A DNA stretch of 52,415 bases, the filler included, from Dimargaris cristalligena (Eukaryota): the NCBI GenBank assembly GCA_003614675.1. It is 2 parts of 2 records of this genome, joined end to end, with 100 filler letters (N's around TTAATTAATTAA, not from the genome) between each part and the next. Parts side by side here need not be neighbours in the genome. Positions count along the whole stretch, not along the records: positions 1 to 26,269 come from ML002546.1; 1 more part is not named here. One strand, written 5' to 3'. A model generated the notes under the pieces. That model was not told where the DNA came from. It did no database searches and was given only the letters and a program-made list of their open reading frames with translations. How positions within the stretch are numbered: the stretch's first letter is position 1; every line of letters begins with the position of its first letter. Below are positions 6,948 to 45,369 of this stretch, in pieces. The position numbers were made by a program, and so were the translations under genes.

Positions 6948-7018
6948 GCGCAGATGGTTTAGTGGTATAATTACCGCCTGCCACGCGGTAGACCCGGGTT
7001 CGATTCCCGGTCTGCGCA
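6948..7018 (+). tRNA. tRNA-Gly (GCC), intronless
   Basis: Acceptor stem GCGCAGA/TCTGCGC+A, anticodon arm ACCGC-CTGCCAC-GCGGT, T-loop GTTCGATTC, T-runs just downstream. Confidence 0.97.
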
Positions 7019-7678
7019 TCCTTTTGACTTTTCAAAATCTCCTGTGGCCCTAGGTTGCTGGCCTCACTTGTTATAGAGGACACTAGTGGCGGGTGGGGGT
7101 GAAGGAGGTGGTGGTTGTTGGAGATTGAGTTGATCAGTTGCAGAGTTTACCCCCCGTCATTTTTTTTTTTCGTTTGATGCTGACGTCGAGTACCTCCACA
7201 TCCAGATGGGGAGGCCAATAATATGGGCGGCATGAGGGTAACACAGTTCACACCCTGCCTACCAGTCGGAAACCATGGAAGGGTGGTAGGCATATTTTCT
7301 TGTACAATGCCTGTGTACGGGGTCATTGGTTTGTGGATAGGGAATTCCTTGCCATAGACTCAAGCGTGCTGCCAAGAGAAAAGTACAACTTCGGGGAATC
7401 TATCCACTACCATTTGACATACACACCCTCAATTTTTCTAGAGGCATCCCAACTATTGGTAGTGGCCTTTGAACAGTGTCCTTCAACAACAGGTAAAAGG
7501 CTATATAAATACACCAAAATCACCCTTCCTTCTCCATTGCCAGGGAATTAATGTTCTTGATTTAGCTTCCTTTTTTCACAGCAGTGACCATCATTTCCTT
7601 TGTTCCTACTCTATATACCCCGGTCTATTTGGAATTACCTAGCTTACTTAAATTTAAACCGCATTAGGCAGGATTGTG

Positions 7679-8392
7679 ATGGCATTTTCATTTCGTTGGG
7701 TGGTCATCAGTGTTGCTCTGGTGTGCCTAAATACTTGGGTGCTGTGCGACCCAACACCGGCCGACAGTACACCGGCTCCAAAGGGTATTTTACGCCCACT
7801 CAACGCCGAACGGATCACTCCTGCGAAGACAGTTAAGTTTGCAGATAAAAAAATGGTTCTTTCTTTTAGAAAAGCTACACCAATCAACATGATTAAAGTG
7901 GATCCGACAATCGGCCCTGGGAATACAGCCAAGCCCGGTGCTAGCAGTAAAAGACTCGGGGCGCATAATCCACTGCACAAGTCTCCGCCGGTGGTATCAT
8001 CTAGACAGGTACCGCCGACAGGAACTGGTGGCTTATCCGAGCGTGGCACAAATGAACCTCACCCCCCATCCCGACTGCTTCAACATGCGGAGAAATATCA
8101 AGAGCGGCACAGCCAATCAGGGAACGGGGCACCCAAACCGATTGAACTGGAGCACCCATCTCAGATTTCGGTGAGTCCTAGTCATTTGCCAGTAGCTCTA
8201 ACGTCCTCAAAGTTCATGATTCGCCCTAAACCAACAGCCACTGCTGCCAACATTCCCCAGCTATTACGTACAAAATCCCGACTAAGCAGCTCAGGTCTGC
8301 GGCAGCCCAGTAGATTTGTGCGTCCAAGCCAAACCTGCCAGGTCACTAATCCCGCTGTCTCTGGTCATACCAAACGGTTCACCACTTCTTAA
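7679..8392 (+). CDS. Hypothetical secreted, basic, Pro/Ser-rich disordered protein with GILR and KTVKF (PP1-docking-like) motifs
   Basis: Single-exon ORF; hydrophobic N-terminus MAFSFRWVVISVALVCLNTWVLC; TATATAAA at 7502. Confidence 0.7.
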   Translation: MAFSFRWVVISVALVCLNTWVLCDPTPADSTPAPKGILRPLNAERITPAKTVKFADKKMVLSFRKATPINMIKVDPTIGPGNTAKPGASSKRLGAHNPLHKSPPVVSSRQVPPTGTGGLSERGTNEPHPPSRLLQHAEKYQERHSQSGNGAPKPIELEHPSQISVSPSHLPVALTSSKFMIRPKPTATAANIPQLLRTKSRLSSSGLRQPSRFVRPSQTCQVTNPAVSGHTKRFTTS

Positions 8393-22461: not shown

Positions 22462-23083
22462 TTAGCGGCCGTATCTAGATAGAATGGAGATTAGCGTAGT
22501 GGAAGGGGTATAATGTAGAATATATCCACACGGTAGACGGTTAGTTGTATGGGTGACAATGGTCCCTTATCGCACAGGTGTAAAAGGTTAAGCACAACTT
22601 CAATCGGCAACTAGTCTAATGGGAGAGTGTAAAACAAAGGTGTGGTAAAGATTAGCCCGGGATAAATACCCCGGCACCCGATCCCGCAAAACGTTCAGCT
22701 TTGGGCAGCGCAGCAGGTTATGGGCGGTACACTTACTTTTGGAATTCCCATTCACGGTTATCGAGGGGACACACCTGGCGGGTTTTGAGCCACCGGGAGA
22801 TGCAGTGGAAATGAAAGGCGTGGTTACAGATACCCCAGGCCACGTTGCATTCCTCGCTGGTGGCGGATGACTGGTTAGCCTGGCATTCGATGCAGAGATC
22901 CATGATATGGTTACGACAAATGGCACAATTGTCAACCACAATGTCCCAGGCCCACAAGGCAACGGCATTCCATTCCTTGACCTCGAAACGCTTGGGGCCA
23001 CCGGAGGCTGGCTTGGAGCTACTACTGGGGGCGGTGGAGCCCTCCGGACGGGGGGTCTCGTCAACATCCATAGCCGACGACAT
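22462..23083 (-). CDS. RBX1: RING-box protein 1 (SCF/CRL E3 ligase subunit); exons 23083-22737 and 22474-22462
   Basis: [34 protein letters not shown]...[32 protein letters not shown]. Confidence 0.98.
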
Positions 23084-24086
23084 GGTTAGAGAGTGAGATG
23101 TATGGATTAGGTATAAAGGAAAAGTGGGAGGGGGATGAGGGACTTGAAGGGAATCGCAGCCGCACAATGGAAAAAAGGATACACCGTCTGTTAGTGAAAT
23201 TCCGAATGAAAAGACTCAAGAAAATCAGGATTAGATGCAGGAAGGAGAAGTGAGCGTGGGTCTTCCGCTGCGGGGCGGTTCAAAGTGAGGTCAATAACCC
23301 TCTTGGGCAGCTAGCCACTGACTAGCGGAGGTTCTTCCAGGTGCCGACTGGTGCACCTACAGCTAGAAGATGAAGGTGATGAATATCACTCCCATTCATC
23401 AATTATCCCCGCACTAGAGTCCTCTCTGAAGGCTAGTCTAACACTACCCTTTAGTATTTTGGGTATGGTGCTAGAGGCATTGAATTTATTCCAAGGCTTA
23501 ATTCGACTATAAGTGAACCCGGCTGAGCACCATTAACCTGGGCGTATATTTTGAAAGAGTTGCCTAATCACCACCACAAATATCCGTAGCCCGATATATA
23601 AACCCAAGCCAAAGAATGGTGGGCCACAGGACTCGGAAGGCCAATAGGGCCAATCACGTGAAGCTCTACCAACTCCATCTGGGGGAAGGGCGCACATTGA
23701 CTTCTCTTGGCTTTGCTCTTCACTTACTTAATGCCAACTTTCCCATTATACTACAGCAAAAGTGGGCTGAGGAAGAGGTGGAGGAGTGGGGAGTTCAGCC
23801 TAATTGTATATGTGCATATATGTAACAGTTTCTACTATGCGGTATTACGAAGGCTTGAATGGAGTGGATGGGCAAGGAAGTGAACAGGCGGAACCTACGT
23901 AGATGAGCTTCATTCCTCCCTCTGCATCTCTTTAACTATATACTAATACTATAAGGTTCGCGTTTTTTTTTATTAACGCCGAGACCTTCATGGCCCCACC
24001 TCATTCTCCCGGCTAATAGTTTTCCTTTGGTTTGACCGCTGCCCATCTAAGTCTGGTCCGAACGTTTCGCCACCCCCTCCCCGCAT

Positions 24087-26269: not shown

Positions 26270-26369
26270 NNNNNNNNNNNNNNNNNNNNNNNNNNNNNNN
26301 NNNNNNNNNNNNNTTAATTAATTAANNNNNNNNNNNNNNNNNNNNNNNNNNNNNNNNNNNNNNNNNNNN
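26270..26369. other. Artificial contig-joining spacer
   Basis: 44 N + TTAATTAATTAA (stops in all six frames) + 44 N = exactly 100 nt. Confidence 0.95.
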
Positions 26370-28104: not shown

Positions 28105-29800
28105 AACTATATAACCAAAGGTGGCTTTATTAGAAATCGTAAATCAGAAATTGCAATGTGGTATCAAAGGGTACGGGAAATTCGGTAGTATAAATGCCTG
28201 TAAAATTGCCATCCGAATTATTCACTGGATTCGGTTTTGTCACAGCATTCCCAGAAACAAGGATTAAAGGTAGTGCAAAAGCATGAGAAACAGTCGCTGA
28301 TACCCTTCCCAATCTCATTAAGAGCAGCGGACATACAAAAGCATGGGCAGCAAAGTAGGTTTTGGACAGGATTATCTGATGGACAGCATGCAGCACAGTC
28401 ATCGGATGCACCAGCATCATCATCGTCATCATCGCGTCGGAAAAGTTTGGGGGCCTGGTTCTCGGTTGACGGGGCGATAATGGTTTTATCCACTTGGGGA
28501 GTCAGGGTTTCTCGCAGATATTCGGCAAACCCAGCCAAGTTGGGAGTAGTCTCTCCGGAATTGGCCTGTGCGCCAGTCAGGGAGAGGTGGTCCCGCACAA
28601 ACGACTTCATGGCAGCCTTGAGGGTTTCGCAGTCAGTATTGGCCGTTTTGACGATTTCCAGGATTTCTTGAACTTCGGGCATACGGTTCTCGCAGGACAC
28701 CTTGGGGCAGGCGCTGGCGACCGGGAAGAGCGGCTGAATACCAGGAGCGGCGCCTAAACTAGCGGAAAATACCGCGGGTACAGCCAGGGCCAAGAGGCCA
28801 ACAGCGAACAACTGCATGGCAGGCAAAGTGATATTATTGGTAACGGGGTTAGACGTGGGGTCAAAAAAGAACCGGTGAGAGGGGAAGAGAAAAGTGAATT
28901 GAAGCAACTCAATAATCGCGTGAGTAGTGGAGAAAGGATTCGTATTTTGCAAATGATATTTTCCGGTAGCAGGTATAGAGGCCATTTATATATCTCTGTG
29001 AGGAACCAAATGGGGAGTGTAGTTTCAATAACCACTCGCCTGGTCCTATCTCCCTACTTTTCAATCTATTGAAGCATTGCAATCAATACCGGGGACTAGT
29101 TGATGGCTTCGATGGTAGAGTAATACCCAGAAAATAGTGTAACAGCTCGTCAAAAAAGAGCTTGGAAGTCCATTCTCCCTAATAAACCAAGCCAACACAA
29201 TCGGTATCTTTCCCCCTTTCCCGATGGCACCACTGCTCTAGCTGGGGTTTCAAAAAAAATCATAACATGACCATAGTAATTTGGTAATTACCTACCGCGC
29301 CTTGTCCGTCGACTGTCCAAGAGGTTCCCCAACCAGCCAGTCCATAAAGTAAACAGCCTCCAGGGAAATGTATAAAGACTGTTCTCAGCTGTTGGACCAT
29401 CCCGTTTTGTTATCACAATTCTGCCCGAAATGATGCACAAGTCCAACCGAGAGGGTGAATTGGGGAAAACGGCCAGGCTCCTTCAATTATTTGAGCACGC
29501 GCCTAGTTCGCCGCTTTAGGCCTTTCTTTATATTTCTCAAATGGTGGAACTACTTGCCGATACTAGCCAGCCATAGAGTGTGTTGGCCAACCCCTGTCTG
29601 GACTCCTTTTCATATCACAGTGCCTTCCAGTTAGTAGTAACACAATTTTCGGACCGCATGGCTTTTGTTAGAGCCAGCATGTGTCCATGTTGGACAAAAA
29701 TCAAATATGCAGACGAGCATATTGTATTCGGCCTGGGTCTTATTATGATGAGTTTCCCTCCATTTGCCGCGAGAACTATTTATCTCTAGTCCACATCAGC
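28105..29800. repeat. Tandem segmental duplication unit A (paralogous to ~33085-34785), covering the gene and ~1 kb of upstream sequence
   Basis: Long colinear identity, e.g. ccatagtaatttggtaattacctaccgcgc vs ccatagtaattcggtaattacttaccgcgc; weaker similarity resumes at ~31115-31440 vs ~34787-35080. Confidence 0.9.
28218..28817 (-). CDS. Secreted prepro-protein with a Cys-rich C-terminal peptide (copy A)
   Basis: Signal peptide MQLFAVGLLALAVPAVFSA; pro-region ends KLFRR; acidic tail with 13 Cys; TATA box at 28985-28992. Confidence 0.85.
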   Translation of the reverse strand: MQLFAVGLLALAVPAVFSASLGAAPGIQPLFPVASACPKVSCENRMPEVQEILEIVKTANTDCETLKAAMKSFVRDHLSLTGAQANSGETTPNLAGFAEYLRETLTPQVDKTIIAPSTENQAPKLFRRDDDDDDAGASDDCAACCPSDNPVQNLLCCPCFCMSAALNEIGKGISDCFSCFCTTFNPCFWECCDKTESSE

Positions 29801-33197: not shown

Positions 33198-33803
33198 TTA
33201 TTCACTGGGTTCAATGGATTCGGTGCTGTCAGGCTCTTCACATATGCAACAATTAAAATTATTGCAGAAAGATGATAAACATTCCCCTAAACCATTCAAA
33301 CACTGATAAATCATATAGGACATACAGAGGCATGGGAAGCAAAGGCAGTTTTCGACAGGATCGCCTAATGTGCAGCACGGTGCACATTCCTCAGGTACAC
33401 TAGCACTATCATTATCATCACGTCGGAAAAGTTTGGAGGCCCGATTCTCAGTTGACGGGGCGATAATGGTGGTATCCACTTGGGGAATCAAGGTTCCACG
33501 CAGATAGTCGGCAAAACCGGCCAAGTTGGGAGTAGTCTCTCCAACATTGGCGTGTGCGCCAGTCAGGGAGAGGTGGTCCCGCACAAACAACTTCATGGAA
33601 GCCTTGAAGGTTTCGCAGTCAGTATTGGCCGTTTTGACGATTTCCAGGATTTCTTGAACTTCGGGCATACGGTTCTCGCAGGACACCTTGGGGCAGGCGC
33701 TGGCGACCGGGAAGAGCGGCTGAATACCAGGAGCGGCACCCACACTAGCGGAAAGTACCATGGGTACCGCCAGGGCCAGGATGCCAACGGTGAACAGCTT
33801 CAT
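33198..33803 (-). CDS. Secreted prepro-protein with a Cys-rich C-terminal peptide (copy B)
   Basis: Signal peptide MKLFTVGILALAVPMVLSA; pro-region nearly identical to copy A, ending KLFRR; divergent tail with 13 Cys; TATA box at 33971-33978. Confidence 0.85.
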   Translation of the reverse strand: MKLFTVGILALAVPMVLSASVGAAPGIQPLFPVASACPKVSCENRMPEVQEILEIVKTANTDCETFKASMKLFVRDHLSLTGAHANVGETTPNLAGFADYLRGTLIPQVDTTIIAPSTENRASKLFRRDDNDSASVPEECAPCCTLGDPVENCLCFPCLCMSYMIYQCLNGLGECLSSFCNNFNCCICEEPDSTESIEPSE

Positions 33804-36049
33804 GGCAGGCAAAGTGATATTATTGGTAACGGGGTTAGACGTGGGGTCAAAAAAGAACCGGTGAGGGTGGAAGACGGAAGTGAGTTGAAGCAACTCAGTA
33901 ATCGGGTAAGTGGTGAAGAACGTATTGTAATTGTGCGAATGACATTCTCTGGTAGCGGGCATAGAGGTCATTTATATACATCTATAGGAAACTAAATGGG
34001 GGTGTAGTTTCAATAACCACCCACTTCACCTCATCTCCCTACTTTTCCGTCTATTGAAGCAGTGTATTTCATAACAGTGGTTAGCTGATGACCCCGATTG
34101 GAGTATTATCCCCCAAAAAATGTGTAACAACCCTCCTAAAAAGGGCTCGGAAGTTGATTCATATGAATTGCCGAACCAGCACATTTGATCCCTTCACTCC
34201 ATTATCGATGGATCCACTGTACTAGCTGGGCTATCCGATCGGAACTAGATACTTACATAGCCATAGTAATTCGGTAATTACTTACCGCGCTTTGTCCGTC
34301 GACTGCCCAAGAGTTTCCCCAACCGATCAATCCATAGCGGAAATAGTTTATAGGAAGTGGATAATTACTGGCCTCAGTTGTTGGATCATCCCATGATGGC
34401 ATCACAAGTTCACCTTAAGCGATACACATGTCCGACTGAGGGGGTGAATTGGGGGATACGGCTAGGTTTCTTCGATTATCAGAACATGCGGCTAGCTCAC
34501 CGCATTAAGCCTTTCTTAACATTTTTTAAAAGGCGGGAGTACTTGCCGGTACTAGCCAGCCAGAGAGGGTGTTGGTCAACTCCTGTCCGAACTCCTTTTC
34601 ATACCACAATGTCTTCCAACAAGTAGTAACACAATTTCTTGACCATATGGGATTTGTTAGGGCCAGCATGTGCCTTCGTAGGACAAAAAAATTAATACGG
34701 ATGAGAATATTGTATCCGGTATGGACTTTATTATGAAAAACTTCCCCCAGTTTGTTGCGAGAACGATATCTCTAGTTCACATTAGTGTATTGCCATGAGG
34801 CGGGCACCAATTGGCTTCGAATATCCGGCTATCAGTTCTGCTGATAGTCATGATGACAATCGATGGATATCGATTAATTGGATGTTGACTAATTTTTTTC
34901 AAGGAAATGTCGATTCTGGTGGATATTTACAAGCCATTGGTTAGTCTCTGCCCCGATTTTTGTTTTCAATACCGCTCCAATCATCATATACTACTAATTT
35001 TATAATGTCTTTTTGAATTGTAGAATGTAATTCAATTATTTACAAAAATTATTTTGGAATTTCTATTTGAGAGCCCTCTTAGAGACAGATAGTGACGATC
35101 TGCGTATATCTGTTCTTTCATTTTTTGATTCATCATCCTACTTCAATGATTGTTAATCCAACTAAATATTTTACAAATCGGCACATTCCTATTGTTTACG
35201 AATTATTTCTATAGTTCGATTGCTATCCTGTCTCACCTACCCCATATTTCTTCTTTTCCAGCCAACGTCGTTCTCTCTGCTGGCCAGGCTACGCCCTCGT
35301 CGATGCCAGTTTGCCCTGTACCAGAGCCCGCGAATCCCAATCCCATCCCCCAACTTGGCGCCATAGGAAATGATCCAGGCGGCCACACGTAGGCTGCCCC
35401 TACCGCCAAGTTTTATTAAGTTTGTGGGTGTGGGTACATACACGTTTGGCCATCCCAACCACTGGTGGCACTACTTTTTAATTGTATTGTTCATGGTGGC
35501 GGAGAGGTTCAAACCTCGGCCAGTTTGGTCATCTACAACTAGTCCAAAAAATAGTTGTGTTGCAGTTAAAGAGGCATTTTCGCTGAGTCAGTCGATATAA
35601 TATATCACCGCACCTGGTACAGCAGTAGGAAGGTAGTGCCCCAAAGCAAGGCCCTGTTAAGCTGTAGGATCCGCTGATTCAGTTTACCACGCAGTAGATT
35701 TAACACCACAGATTTTGGGCACTAATGGAGGTGCACTAAGCAAGATTCAATAGTGGTTTAATAATTGTCCACCACATCCGAATCCTACGAAGGCCTCTCC
35801 CAGCAATGCGATTTTACTATTCTATGAGAAGATATCAGTGTTAGTGAAGGAAAAAATAGTCAGAATTGCCTAGGTTCAAGATTACTGTCGATTGCACTAA
35901 ATAAATTGAGCCAAACTCATTTTTATAAATACATGAGTAGGTCAAGGCATTTTTTTATTGGTATTCTTTGTTCTGTCTGTTGGTTGTCCGCTTAACTTTC
36001 GGCCGATGCCCCATCCTCCTCAATCCTTCAGGTCCGCCATTAATCCTCC

Positions 36050-38482: not shown

Positions 38483-39508
38483 ATGTCTTTTCAACTCCTC
38501 TTACGCGATTTATTTACTATTGTCTTTAGTGGGGTTCTACTTATAAATATTTCTACCTGCGCGGTACTTTCCAATCCACACCCTGATTCGACGTTGCCTG
38601 CCAACATCTCCGATTATTTGCGAGTCTACGGTGGTCAGGCTGTTTCTGAGGGCTATCCCTTTTTGGCCCGTGTAGTATCACTTGGCCCTCAAAACACCCT
38701 CTGTTCCGGCAGTGTTCTGAATCAGCACTGGATTCTAACCGCTGCCCATTGCGTAACCCAATGCTCCCAACCATATGATTGGTACGGTGAGTGCAGGGTA
38801 AGCGACCCTGGGTTCACTTACGTCACGGTTGGCACTTCCGACCCACGTACCACCACTATCTTCAACGCCTCCCAAATTATCGTTCACCCCGACTACCATA
38901 CCGATCAAGCACCCGAGGCCGATATCGCAGTCATCCAGCTTCGGACCCCCCTCACGTATTCAAAAGAAGTCCAACCTATCAAAATCTACACCGGTCAGAT
39001 TGCTGATAATGCCGCTGCCCAAGTTATCGGTTGGGGCCAAATCGAAGAGGGCCAGTCACCCACTGCGTCAGCCCCCTACGAAGCGGATATACGGATGTCT
39101 AATGACCGCCAACTTTGTAATGTTGTTGAAGGCTTGAACTTCCAGAACTCGAATGGGCCTCTCATCTGTTCGGCCAAAGACAACTACAAAGGTCCGTGTT
39201 TGGGGGATTCCGGGGGTCCTCTTCTGGGGCGATACCAAGAGACGTGGGCTCAACTCGGAATTACCAGCTTCGGCACCAACCCAGGGACCAATATCACCTG
39301 TGATAGTCCCAACAAAACCTCCTATTTTACACACGTGGCCTATTTCCTGGATTTTGTACTCAATGCCACTAGGCTCGGCCACGATGAAATAGTATTAACC
39401 ACCAATGGTGTCGGTCGTCTGGTTGAAATGCAGTCAAGTGTAATATTTATCTCATTTTTCTTTTCCATCTTTACTGCCAATGTTTTGTTTACCAATGTAT
39501 TTCTATAG
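38483..39508 (+). CDS. Secreted S1A (trypsin-fold) serine protease with a hydrophobic C-terminal tail (possible GPI signal)
   Basis: Signal peptide; R|VYGG activation site; TAAHC, DIAVI, GDSGGP; tail SVIFISFFFSIFTANVLF; TATAAATA at 38286. Confidence 0.95.
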   Translation: MSFQLLLRDLFTIVFSGVLLINISTCAVLSNPHPDSTLPANISDYLRVYGGQAVSEGYPFLARVVSLGPQNTLCSGSVLNQHWILTAAHCVTQCSQPYDWYGECRVSDPGFTYVTVGTSDPRTTTIFNASQIIVHPDYHTDQAPEADIAVIQLRTPLTYSKEVQPIKIYTGQIADNAAAQVIGWGQIEEGQSPTASAPYEADIRMSNDRQLCNVVEGLNFQNSNGPLICSAKDNYKGPCLGDSGGPLLGRYQETWAQLGITSFGTNPGTNITCDSPNKTSYFTHVAYFLDFVLNATRLGHDEIVLTTNGVGRLVEMQSSVIFISFFFSIFTANVLFTNVFL

Positions 39509-39691: not shown

Positions 39692-42600
39692 TCATTCGGG
39701 ATTCGTCGATTGTAAATACGGCCAGCACACGTTGATCGGGAATAGTGGACTGCCATAAATAGACTTTGTCTTTTGGTTTATCTTCTCGAAACACCCGCGG
39801 AGGGCATCAATCCAAGCGATTACTTTACAACCGGGCGGAACCTGCGTATATACATTACAAAGGGACCCAATTAATTATTAGAAATAGACAAAAGGCAAGC
39901 TGCCGGTTAAGGAAACACCCCAAATGGAAACTTATGCTAAATTAGTACCATGCCTGTTATCAAAAGAAGAGTCGCCATATTGGATGATAAAGTATGACTA
40001 CTGACTTGCTGAACAAGGATAGTGGGTTCTAGAAAAATAATTGCAAAAATGAGGATATTGTGTCCAGTATCGAATTAGTAATTCTACACGCTCCATGTCT
40101 TGGTAGTCGAGTAGCCCTTCCAAGTAATTAGTGAAGTCTTCCACATCCTCGGGTATGGGCCCTTTCGGGAAGGTATGCACCCATTCGGTGATCAACATCC
40201 GTTGGTCGGCCAAACCGGTTTGACCTAGCAGATCGGGGTAGTTATTAGGCTTAAAAACAAAAAGCCACAGGGATAATTGATAAAGGCGTAGTTAGATATC
40301 CAGAAAATTCCGATAGATTGCATAGCGTGGGCTTAAATATCACCTTTACGGCCAATGGGGTGTGGAACGGAGTAATAACGTTTCCTAAGTGAGAATGGCC
40401 GGCACTGAGCTAGCTTAATGAGGAAGTGTGAAGGGAAGAAAAGAAAGGGGTATGTAGTACTCCCTGGATGGAAACTGACCTGAGATGGCAATAACAAACC
40501 TCCATTAAGGTCTCCAGGGCCATGCGAATCAGACGGGATTGGCAAAGGCTGGCGATGAATTTTTTCTTCCAAGCCGGGTGGTTTGGGCTTGGATCGGAAG
40601 CATTCTCGTAGAATATCGGCCTTAATATCTTTCAAAGGTAACAACATATCAAAAGAGATGAGAAAATATCGAACTATTATGTTATTAGTCAATAAGCATA
40701 CCTTAGTCCAGGTCCACTGGTGGAAAATTGGTTAGCCCGGGTGAGAGAGTCGAAATCCCTATGCTAATGAATGTCGATTTTACATTGCAACCGATATCCG
40801 TGGACCAAACTTCCACTCAACTGGATCATTCCCACTGGAAACCCATCTAATGAGTCGACATTAGCCAGCTAACCCGATAGCGCTTACCATCCGGAAATGC
40901 TCTGATTTCGGCCATATTAAGGGAATCGCGATATGGTGTCAAGGGTTCCATTTGGTCAAATAAATCGGCGGATGAGTTCGAGCTAGGTCCAGCGCGATTA
41001 AACAAAGCTACTATTGATGGTGCCGATCCGTGGTCAGGTCGATTTCGGAGACCCAGTACTGTATTCGGGGGTGGACACAGAGGCCGAGGTGAGCGTGATG
41101 CCCGTTTTTTCGAACCGGGCAAGAATTTTTGGAACCCACTTCGATTCAGGGCGGTAATCTGCACTTCGCGTTGGAGTTCGGGGGGTAGAGCGCCCAAAAC
41201 GGCGGGATCGATTTGGGACGGGGTGGGGAATTCCTGCGACCGGGCCAAGGCCCGCCGCTGGGGAGTCGTCGCCCCTCCACCAGCTGCCCGGGTGGCCCGG
41301 GGCGTGGGCGAGTCGGGCGGATCATGGGAAGGGGCGGTAAAATTCGGGTCAAGCAACTGACTGCGGGCACCGACGGGATGGGCCCGGAATTGCGTTCGTA
41401 TTTCTTTCTTGACACTCTCCGGCAAACTTCGCCACACGTCCCGACTAATTTGCGAGGAAGGGGCGGAGATGGGTGACTGATCAGCTTGGGTCCGTACCGG
41501 TGTACACAATTGTATTGGGTATTCCGGGGGACAAACATCTAGTGACCGGTTGCCTTGTGGACCAACCAGAGTACGGGGCAATGTCGGCGTGGCAGTAGTG
41601 GCAGCGGGCCTATCGTTAAAAAAATGGGACAGGGGTCGGTGAGACGAGTCCCTGGGATGATCGGCGGAGTGCAGTTCAGCCGATCCCGAAGGGTCGTCGG
41701 AAACTAATTTCTGTACCTGTATGCCCACGGCCCGGAGGTCCACCGGGGGCACCGCCAATTGACCAAGAAGCCGACTGCACGTCTGGTAGAGAGCGTCAGC
41801 CTCCCGGGTGAGCTGGGGGAGAGTTGCTGATTTTGAAAAATTATCGCACAGTCCATGGCCCAAATGCTTACGGGCCTCCCCCGCACCCTCCTGCCGACGT
41901 TTGAGTCGTAGGGTGACTGATTTGCCTCGAACACTGGCTGTGGCCATTCGGGTGTGAACTTCCTGGCAGAGATCGCGGAGAAACTTGTCCACCTGGGCGG
42001 GTGTTTCAAACCGAACCCCCCAGCCAATTTCAGTTCCCACTGAATGTCGAGGGGGGGAAGTGACTAGTGGCCGGTCGTCCTGGCCGAGGGCCATGCGCTG
42101 TATATTAAGGCCAGCCTTAGGTCCCAGCATATCTTGTAGGCGAGCAAGCGGCTGGTTACGAAGGTCCCTGATAGTAGTGATCCCCGCATCAGCCAGCTTC
42201 CGGGCGGTGGTCTCACCAATGCCGGGAATATGTTTAACCGGTAGTGGAGCTAGCCGGGTAGGCGCATCTTCGATGGGGAGGTAGTACTGGCCATGTGGTT
42301 TAGCCCAGCGGGTGGCCAGCTTCGCCAATAGAATATTCTCGGATATACCCACACTAACTTGACATTGGGTAGCCTCCCACACCTGCTGACGAAGCGATTC
42401 GGCCATCTTAGCACAAACTGACTCGCGACTTACACCCTTGGTCTGGGCACCTTTATCGGCGCTCTGATCATTAATAAGGTTAGTGACGTCCAGAATAGCC
42501 TCGTCCATACCCCCGACCTGAACTTGGGGAGTGGTCGCGACTAAGATCTGGTAGAGAGTGCGGGATGCTTCCCGGTATTGTTCAAACTCGTAGGGAATCA

Positions 42601-44508: not shown

Positions 44509-45369
44509 TTAGTACCAGCGGTGGTTATTGAATTGGCCGCGGCTATTGCCACCGTGGCCTCCGTCACCACCATCACCGCCGTTTCCGCCGCTACCGCGAC
44601 CATAGCTGTTACCACCATCGCCGCCGTGACCACCGTCACCACCATCGCCCCCGCCTCCACGACCGTGTCCAGATCCATGGCCACGATAGCGACGGTCATA
44701 GTCATCGTAATATCCTAAGCCGCGGCGATACCGGCCGCCGGCATTGCCCCCGTCACCACCGTCGCCGCCGTCGCCACCGGAACCGCGACCGCGGCTGTTT
44801 CCGCCGTGGCCACCATCACCACCGTCACCGCCATCGCCCCCGCTTCCACGCCCGTGTCCGGATCCGTGGCCGCGATAGCGACGGTCATAGTTGTCGTAAT
44901 ATCCTAAGCCACGACGATACCGGCCGCCGGCATTACCACCATCTCCACCATCTCCTCCGTCACCACCGGAGCCGCGACCGTGGCTGTTTCCGCCGTGGCC
45001 ACCATCACCACCGTCGCCGCCGTTGCCACCCGGGCCCGAGGAATGACCGTGGCCCCAACGGTAATCACGGCCATTTCCACGATGACGGTAATCATCGAAA
45101 TTATTGTAGGGGCTGCGGCGGTGAACGCTTCCACCATGACCGCCATCGCCACCGTCGCCGCCGTCACCACCGGAACCACGACCACGGCTGTTTCCACCGT
45201 GGCCCCCGTCACCGCCATCACCACCGTTTCCGCCTGACGAGTGCCCGTGGCCGTGGTGATGATTGTTGTTGGACCAGCTACGAATGTTCAGGTCCGAGGT
45301 GGTCGAGGCCTGCGCTTGGGAGGCCAAGACGGTGACCAAGAGAGCAGCGATTCCAACGTTGATCTTCAT
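44509..45369 (-). CDS. Secreted glycine-rich (GGD/GGH/GGN) repeat protein with four modules separated by R/RR sites
   Basis: Signal peptide MKINVGIAALLVTVLASQAQA; modules end VHRR, RYRR, RYRR; internal 189-bp (63-aa) duplication (44685 vs 44874). Confidence 0.85.
   Translation of the reverse strand: MKINVGIAALLVTVLASQAQASTTSDLNIRSWSNNNHHHGHGHSSGGNGGDGGDGGHGGNSRGRGSGGDGGDGGDGGHGGSVHRRSPYNNFDDYRHRGNGRDYRWGHGHSSGPGGNGGDGGDGGHGGNSHGRGSGGDGGDGGDGGNAGGRYRRGLGYYDNYDRRYRGHGSGHGRGSGGDGGDGGDGGHGGNSRGRGSGGDGGDGGDGGNAGGRYRRGLGYYDDYDRRYRGHGSGHGRGGGGDGGDGGHGGDGGNSYGRGSGGNGGDGGDGGHGGNSRGQFNNHRWY

Follow-up and report, generated by a model that had tools for sequence, protein, structure and literature searches.

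A candidate lineage-specific secreted protein of the mycoparasite Dimargaris cristalligena with a PP1-docking-like motif series

Proteins that bind protein phosphatase 1 (PP1) do so through short motifs, among which RVxF, PhiPhixF, SILK and Arg have been named (PMC11536154), and SILK always lies N-terminal to RVxF (PMC3792071). The RVxF motif of PNUTS reads KTVTW, and the engineered peptide PhosTAP, in which SILK, a linker, RVxF, PhiPhixF and Arg follow one another, binds PP1 at 4 nM (PMC11536154). Pi04314, an RXLR effector of Phytophthora infestans, binds host PP1c via KVTF and mimics a regulatory subunit (PMC4740116), and viral proteins recruit host PP1 by mimicry of RVxF-type motifs (PMC10807198). 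Dimargaritales, the group to which Dimargaris cristalligena belongs, parasitise other fungi by means of an appressorium and a biotrophic haustorium (PMC9866270; PMC6784888). In this work, we analyze an open reading frame (ORF P0001; ATG at 7679, stop codon ending at 8392, + strand, 237 codons) in a 52,415-nucleotide stretch of the public D. cristalligena assembly GCA_003614675.1, and this whole stretch is referred to as the window. An earlier note on this DNA had described the product as a secreted disordered protein with a PP1-docking-like cassette and proposed that it recruits or inhibits the PP1 (Glc7) of the host.

The ORF is rated as a lineage-specific candidate secreted protein. We consider it likely, though well short of certain, that it is a real, translated gene; most likely it is a gene that the annotation lacks, confined to the Dimargaris lineage and of recent origin or fast evolution, and its expression is probably weak. 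The explanation that we favor, giving it about an even chance of being right, is that the gene encodes an orphan secreted disordered protein and that the cassette is coincidental, lying in a compartment without PP1. In this scheme, translation would start at the ATG at 7679, residues 1–23 would serve as a cleavable signal peptide, and a basic, Pro/Ser/Thr-rich and intrinsically disordered chain of about 214 residues would be secreted. The secreted chain may be O-glycosylated and may be cut at two KR sites, and its site of action would be extracellular, either at the wall or where parasite and host meet. The SILK-RVxF-PhiPhixF series would sit in the lumen of the secretory pathway, which contains no PP1, as a coincidence of degenerate short motifs.

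The motifs themselves are all present. GILR, then KTVKF, then hydrophobic residues follow the signal-peptide-like start at the places and in the order that the earlier note had given. GILR (residues 36–39; 7784..7795, + strand) matches the SILK-type pattern, is preceded by K35, and sits ten residues ahead of K50, that is, N-terminal to the RVxF-type match KTVKF (residues 50–54; 7826..7840, +). A PhiPhi motif is usually found 5–8 residues C-terminal to RVxF. Here the hydrophobic residues M59-V60-L61 (7853–7861, +) occupy this region, and the cassette turns out to be longer than had been noticed: VLSF (residues 60–63), a regular-expression match to PhiPhixF five residues from F54, is followed directly by R64 (7856..7870, +).

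The RVxF-type match depends on how the pattern is written. KTVKF fits one loose and one stricter pattern, both written from recall, and also the pattern [KRL][KRSTAMVHNQ][VI]{FIMYDP}[FW] (PMC3792071). It fails the strict form [K/R][K/R][V/I]x[F/W] as given in PMC4740116, because T51 is not basic. The flanks agree in part only with the arrangement of basic residues before and acidic residues after RVxF (PMC3792071), in that D56 is followed by K57 and K58. No PPP phosphatase was found in the window, where the last scan covered 50 of the 126 ORFs of at least 75 amino acids (aa) beyond 13 kb and omitted ORFs that overlap already scanned ones or lie inside known genes.

We then asked how often such a series arises by chance, using a basic cassette defined as SILK, then RVxF, then a hydrophobic pair 4–8 residues further. 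This pattern appeared in 131 of 400,000 shuffles of the whole protein and in 60 of 400,000 shuffles of the predicted mature part; a separate run of 200,000 shuffles each gave 3.7e-4 (whole) and 1.1e-4 (mature). Taken alone, SILK was matched in 1.6–1.7% of shuffles and the loose RVxF pattern in 10–20%. All these rates are for one motif pattern, and a reader could have noticed many other short motifs. The real six-frame translation of the window contains exactly one basic cassette, the one described here, and among 200 windows simulated with an order-2 Markov model, 8.5% (spacing of at most 110) or 6% (spacing of at most 30) contained at least one. The pattern was absent from 125 real proteins (112,897 residues, drawn from two families only).

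GILR could also be part of a hydrophobic-hydrophobic-R-P pattern instead of a SILK motif. The predicted protein has three such motifs, ILRP, MIRP and FVRP (7787–7798, 8216–8227 and 8315–8326, + strand; residues 37–40, 180–183 and 213–216), two of them in the form S[KR]F..RP. Three occurrences were reached in shuffles at a rate of 7e-5, for a pattern that was picked post hoc. An internal repeat was considered and dropped, with a self-alignment score of 32 against 32.3 ± 4.6 in shuffles. A pattern found by eye can thus reach 7e-5 here and yet reflect no repeat, so post hoc p-values near 1e-4 are cheap in this protein.

The N-terminus (residues 1–23; 7679..7747, +) resembles a signal peptide, with R6, a hydrophobic run from W7 to L17, and then NTWVLC. 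It passes a crude n/h/c rule, with an h-region from residue 7 and a mean Kyte-Doolittle hydropathy of 2.8, and single-sequence AlphaFold2 places one helix at residues 5–21 and no other structure; to this extent, the signal peptide of the earlier note is borne out. Because the same rule is passed by 9 of the 95 six-frame ATG-ORFs of at least 60 aa in the window, such a start carries little weight. The first cut that the rule permits lies after residue 16, and by our own reading cleavage may occur after C23, with V at -3 and C at -1. According to the positive-inside rule, a positive charge before a hydrophobic stretch leaves the C-terminal part luminal. With R6 ahead of the stretch and two acidic residues, D24 and D29, behind it, the C-terminal part is predicted outside the cytosol, and the product is more likely secreted than anchored with a cytosolic tail. 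With this predicted topology, the cassette would share no compartment with PP1 in the producing cell and would lie in the secretory lumen.

The disorder that had been claimed holds at the level of a model. The mean predicted local distance difference test (pLDDT) score is 49.4 and no fold is predicted; 160 of 237 residues score below 50. The cassette region (residues 27–60) scores below 50 throughout and has no secondary structure, although low confidence in a single-sequence model is not proof of disorder. The predicted mature part of 214 residues contains 31 K+R against 11 D+E and 34% P+S+T, with one cysteine, no N-glycosylation sequon and no hydrophobic C-terminal tail. The dibasic KR pairs at residues 91–92 (7949..7954, +) and 232–233 (8372..8377, +) may be Kex2-type processing sites.

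Length, periodicity and composition argue for a translated frame. An ATG-ORF of at least 237 codons occurred in 2 of 150 simulated 52-kb sequences with the composition of the whole window and in 0 of 150 with that of its AT-richer parts; when the simulated windows were given the composition of the ORF itself, 18 of 150 contained one this long. The remaining five frames across the ORF have 7–17 stops each. The 3-base periodicity (chi2 23.3) lies far from that of random stop-free sequence of the same composition (7.9 ± 4.4) and was equalled in 5 of 1000 nulls, exceeding what stop avoidance produces. Coding statistics are absent from the alternative frames of this locus, the best of which scores -0.038.

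The ORF also forms a C-rich, T-poor island (C 0.29, T 0.22) between flanks with C 0.22 and T 0.31–0.32, and the switch in composition coincides with both of its ends. At codon position 3, the base composition matches that of the non-coding flanks (chi2 0.9, p 0.83), whereas positions 1 and 2 differ strongly from them (p 8e-7 and 1e-4, respectively); the island is therefore carried by the protein-determining positions only. This would be expected of a translated frame without codon-usage selection and not of a non-coding island, which should shift all three positions. The island resembles the sense strands of the other genes in the window.

On the other hand, a number of results weigh against the reading of a real gene with a coincidental cassette. 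The synonymous codon score of -0.17 per codon indicates no bias: background composition predicts -0.195 ± 0.049, whereas under the codon usage of the window's genes 0.187 ± 0.046 is expected, and 0 of 2000 gene-usage simulations fell to this level. The seven ORFs used as reference, of which six have a Pfam family and one does not, score 0.027–0.222; over all comparisons, the ORF ranges from -0.17 to -0.19 and the reference ORFs from 0.027 to 0.225. By full codon score (-0.09 to -0.18), the ORF's own frame does not stand above the other five, and the ORF groups with the spurious ORFs of the window. Its amino-acid composition is close to that of a random translation of its bases (chi2 23.9 against 19.1 ± 6.3; p 0.20) in a test that is partly circular for a low-complexity protein, and six ORFs with coding statistics give chi2 of 60–395. 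Neither protein library contains a protein from this ORF, though its neighbors are present, and no homologs that would show evolutionary constraint were found. As to the cassette, an extended form with PhiPhixF, which was added to the pattern post hoc after the sequence had been seen, occurred in 3 of 400,000 shuffles of the whole protein and 0 of 400,000 of the mature part, and this speaks against coincidence. Length and frame-specific composition fit a gene, and gene-like codon usage, annotation and conservation were not found.

The searches behind this last point returned no relative. Pfam gave 0 families, a word-index search of 5.8 billion proteins gave no match at E of at most 0.01 among 372 candidates of 130–415 aa, and full phmmer against 1.84 billion representative proteins gave 0 matches. 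The ESM Atlas yielded no usable match, and the single match among PDB sequences, at E 1.1, is not meaningful. Within the window there is no paralog or DNA repeat of the ORF (next-best tblastn match, E 0.14), and the locus itself has no tandem repeat and no RNA family in Rfam, whose match in the window is a tRNA only. The missing homologs say little about constraint, because even Nop14 of the nearest sequenced relatives (Tieghemiomyces and Dispira) is only 47–49% identical to the Nop14 of the window. At such a distance, around 48% identity, a disordered protein would be unrecognizable, so that the absence of homologs is uninformative. Likewise, the missing annotation is not independent evidence, since the same codon statistics probably enter into the annotation pipeline.

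Two other explanations concern the gene itself. It is possible, though we think it doubtful, that 714 non-coding bases between tRNA-Gly(GCC) and CAF1B are stop-free in one frame by luck, and that the apparent signal peptide, disorder and motifs are by-products of translating C/A-rich DNA. Background-like synonymous usage, an own-frame codon score like that of spurious ORFs and an amino-acid composition that fits random translation are what such an ORF would show. Its charged residues are also near the background expectation (K+R 0.135 and D+E 0.046 against 0.127 and 0.065), it has neither homolog nor annotation, signal-peptide-like starts are not rare among the ORFs of the window, and its own composition yields an ORF of this length in 18 of 150 simulated windows. 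By extrapolation, a genome of 20–30 Mb (size from PMC9866270) should hold a few such ORFs. What a lucky frame does not account for is the improbable length at window composition, the periodicity beyond stop avoidance, and an island that matches the ORF ends and is limited to codon positions 1 and 2. A different gene model, in which the ORF is an exon of a spliced gene or a relic of a decaying one and the 237-aa product is not a real protein, strikes us as quite improbable. Genes here do carry introns, periodicity without codon bias would suit a decaying gene, and an in-frame intron-like stretch, GTGAGT...CTCTAAC...AG, can be read by eye at 8171–8212 (+). Yet this stretch of 42 bases is far below the CAF1B gaps and is probably due to chance, the flanking ORFs show neither a Pfam family nor coding statistics, and the open frame begins just 7 codons ahead of the ATG.

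The other two explanations take the cassette as functional. We regard it as unlikely that the protein is an effector that the haustorium passes into the host fungus, where residues 35–64 would occupy the SILK, RVxF and PhiPhi grooves on host PP1 (Glc7), and host regulatory subunits would be displaced or PP1 retargeted. A host-directed effector is biologically coherent because D. cristalligena is a haustorial parasite of fungi, and Pi04314 and the viral proteins offer precedents. SILK, RVxF, PhiPhixF and Arg are all there in the correct order, the same series as in the 4 nM peptide, with KTVKF near the KTVTW of PNUTS; the cassette falls in the low-pLDDT region, and its extended form is rare in shuffles. 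Against this stand the merely putative status of the gene (unannotated, without codon bias, near-random in amino-acid composition), the missed strict RVxF pattern, flanks that fit in part, the chance frequency of the basic cassette in simulated windows and the post hoc nature of the PhiPhixF extension. No route by which a Dimargaris protein would cross into the host is known to us. The claim in its full form, a lineage-specific effector of a haustorial mycoparasite that enters the host fungus and clamps Glc7 with a complete SILK-RVxF-PhiPhixF-Arg cassette, is improbable to the same degree. Less probable by far is an endogenous PP1 adaptor, whose hydrophobic stretch would be a retained anchor and whose cassette-bearing tail would face the parasite's own cytosol. 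The stretch from W7 to C23 is 17 residues long and the cassette starts 12 residues later, as this would require, but the charges around it predict a luminal C-terminal part, N18/T19 break it into a short h-region and a c-region like those of cleaved signal peptides, and no homolog was found among known PP1 regulators. We keep to an orphan secreted disordered protein with a coincidental cassette, at the even chance given above.

The ORF lies on the same contig as its annotated downstream neighbor, the CAF1B gene (CAF1B-like protein P0122), which lies 660 bases downstream and aligns in eight blocks with gaps of roughly 160–320 bases between them. Upstream, tRNA-Gly(GCC) (6948–7018, +), the sole tRNA and sole Rfam match of the window, lies 660 bases from the ATG on the same strand. 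Both neighbors that were checked, CAF1B and Nop14, are annotated, while the ORF (7679..8392, +) has no annotation in the public proteome. Two promoter-like candidates were read by eye, TATATAAA at 7502..7509 (+), 170 bases upstream of the ATG, and a second TATATA at 7612–7617 (+). The window is made of two pieces of 26,269 and 26,046 bases with N runs between them at 26270–26313 and 26326–26369. Its long ORFs carry Nop14, a Rev1-like Y-family polymerase, DUF747, an S10 carboxypeptidase, a trypsin-like protease and SSXT, and the multi-exon CAF1B/HIR1 WD40 gene is also among its genes. Along its full length, the Nop14 ORF shares 98% identity with D. cristalligena Nop14.

Elsewhere in the window, several other ORFs have features of secreted proteins. 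Two paralogous ORFs in the AT-richer part, at 28218–28985 (-) and 33198–33971 (-), encode 255 and 257 aa, are 71% identical and have no Pfam family. Each has a strongly signal-peptide-like stretch after an internal Met57, a cysteine-rich C-terminus and coding-like codon statistics, and as candidates for secreted effectors they look stronger than the ORF studied here. At 44509–45369 (-) lies an ORF for 286 aa that has no Pfam family and starts like a signal peptide (MKINVGIAALLVTVLASQAQA); its base composition is heavily skewed (sense-strand G 0.385), with a highly pronounced periodicity (chi2 322). The protease of the trypsin family at 38483–39508 (+), whose start likewise resembles a signal peptide, fits the emphasis on proteases in the mycoparasite papers (PMC6784888; PMC9866270). 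Meanwhile, the Rbx1-type RING-H2 exon at 22736–23215 (-) and the REV1 C-terminal domain exon at 40001–40291 (-), downstream of the Rev1-like polymerase ORF, belong to ordinary housekeeping genes.

The locus matters in different ways depending on which explanation is right. If the ORF is expressed, the D. cristalligena annotation gains a gene that it had missed, and a concrete effector candidate would be at hand for a biotroph that lives on fungi. Should the cassette bind PP1, motif mimicry directed at this conserved phosphatase hub, known from viruses and oomycetes, would reach fungus-fungus interactions as well, and a 30-residue peptide would offer itself for testing. As far as our literature search shows, PP1-docking mimicry has not been described before in an effector that one fungus directs at another, so the host-directed effector, if true, would be the first case, with a motif series equal to that of the tightest known PP1 binders. 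That search found no paper linking mycoparasites, effectors and RVxF, and the consulted parts of PMC6784888 and PMC9866270 describe no candidate effector of a fungus-on-fungus biotroph. If the ORF is not expressed, it teaches caution, as a random-looking ORF can then show a signal peptide, apparent disorder and a textbook cassette together.

Compared with the described systems, the predicted protein is like Pi04314 in being a predicted secreted protein of a haustorium-forming biotroph with an RVxF-type motif. Pi04314 differs in coming from an oomycete that attacks plants, in its RXLR translocation motif, and in the experimental evidence for its binding, relocalization and effect on virulence. 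The ORF studied here has no RXLR and no detectable sequence relation to Pi04314, and we rejected its assignment to oomycete RXLR effectors, as it also has no predicted fold (no WY) and the organism is a fungus. The consulted text on Pi04314 mentions only an RVxF motif, whereas here SILK, RVxF and PhiPhi stand in series, as read from sequence alone. In this order of motifs, in KTVKF against KTVTW, and in the position of the cassette within a predicted disordered stretch, the protein is closer to Inhibitor-2, PNUTS and PhosTAP. There is no homology to Inhibitor-2 or PNUTS beyond the motifs; both are cytosolic or nuclear, lack a signal peptide, and have measured PP1 binding. The viral recruiters are likewise parasite-encoded proteins with an RVxF-type short motif, but their synthesis takes place in the host cell, so that secretion and translocation are not needed, and they are unrelated in sequence. 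As judged by pattern matches, the predicted protein belongs to the PP1 interactors at the motif level only, and at most it would work like a motif-mimicking PP1 recruiter.

A further comparison is with lineage-specific candidate secreted effectors and young (de novo) genes of fungi, which are short and single-exon, carry a signal peptide, lack homologs and domains, and show weak or no codon adaptation and predicted disorder. Many characterized fungal effectors are folded or cysteine-rich. The ORF of D. cristalligena, with a single cysteine in its predicted mature part, differs from the latter and, as predicted, resembles the lineage-specific candidate effectors and young genes of fungi.

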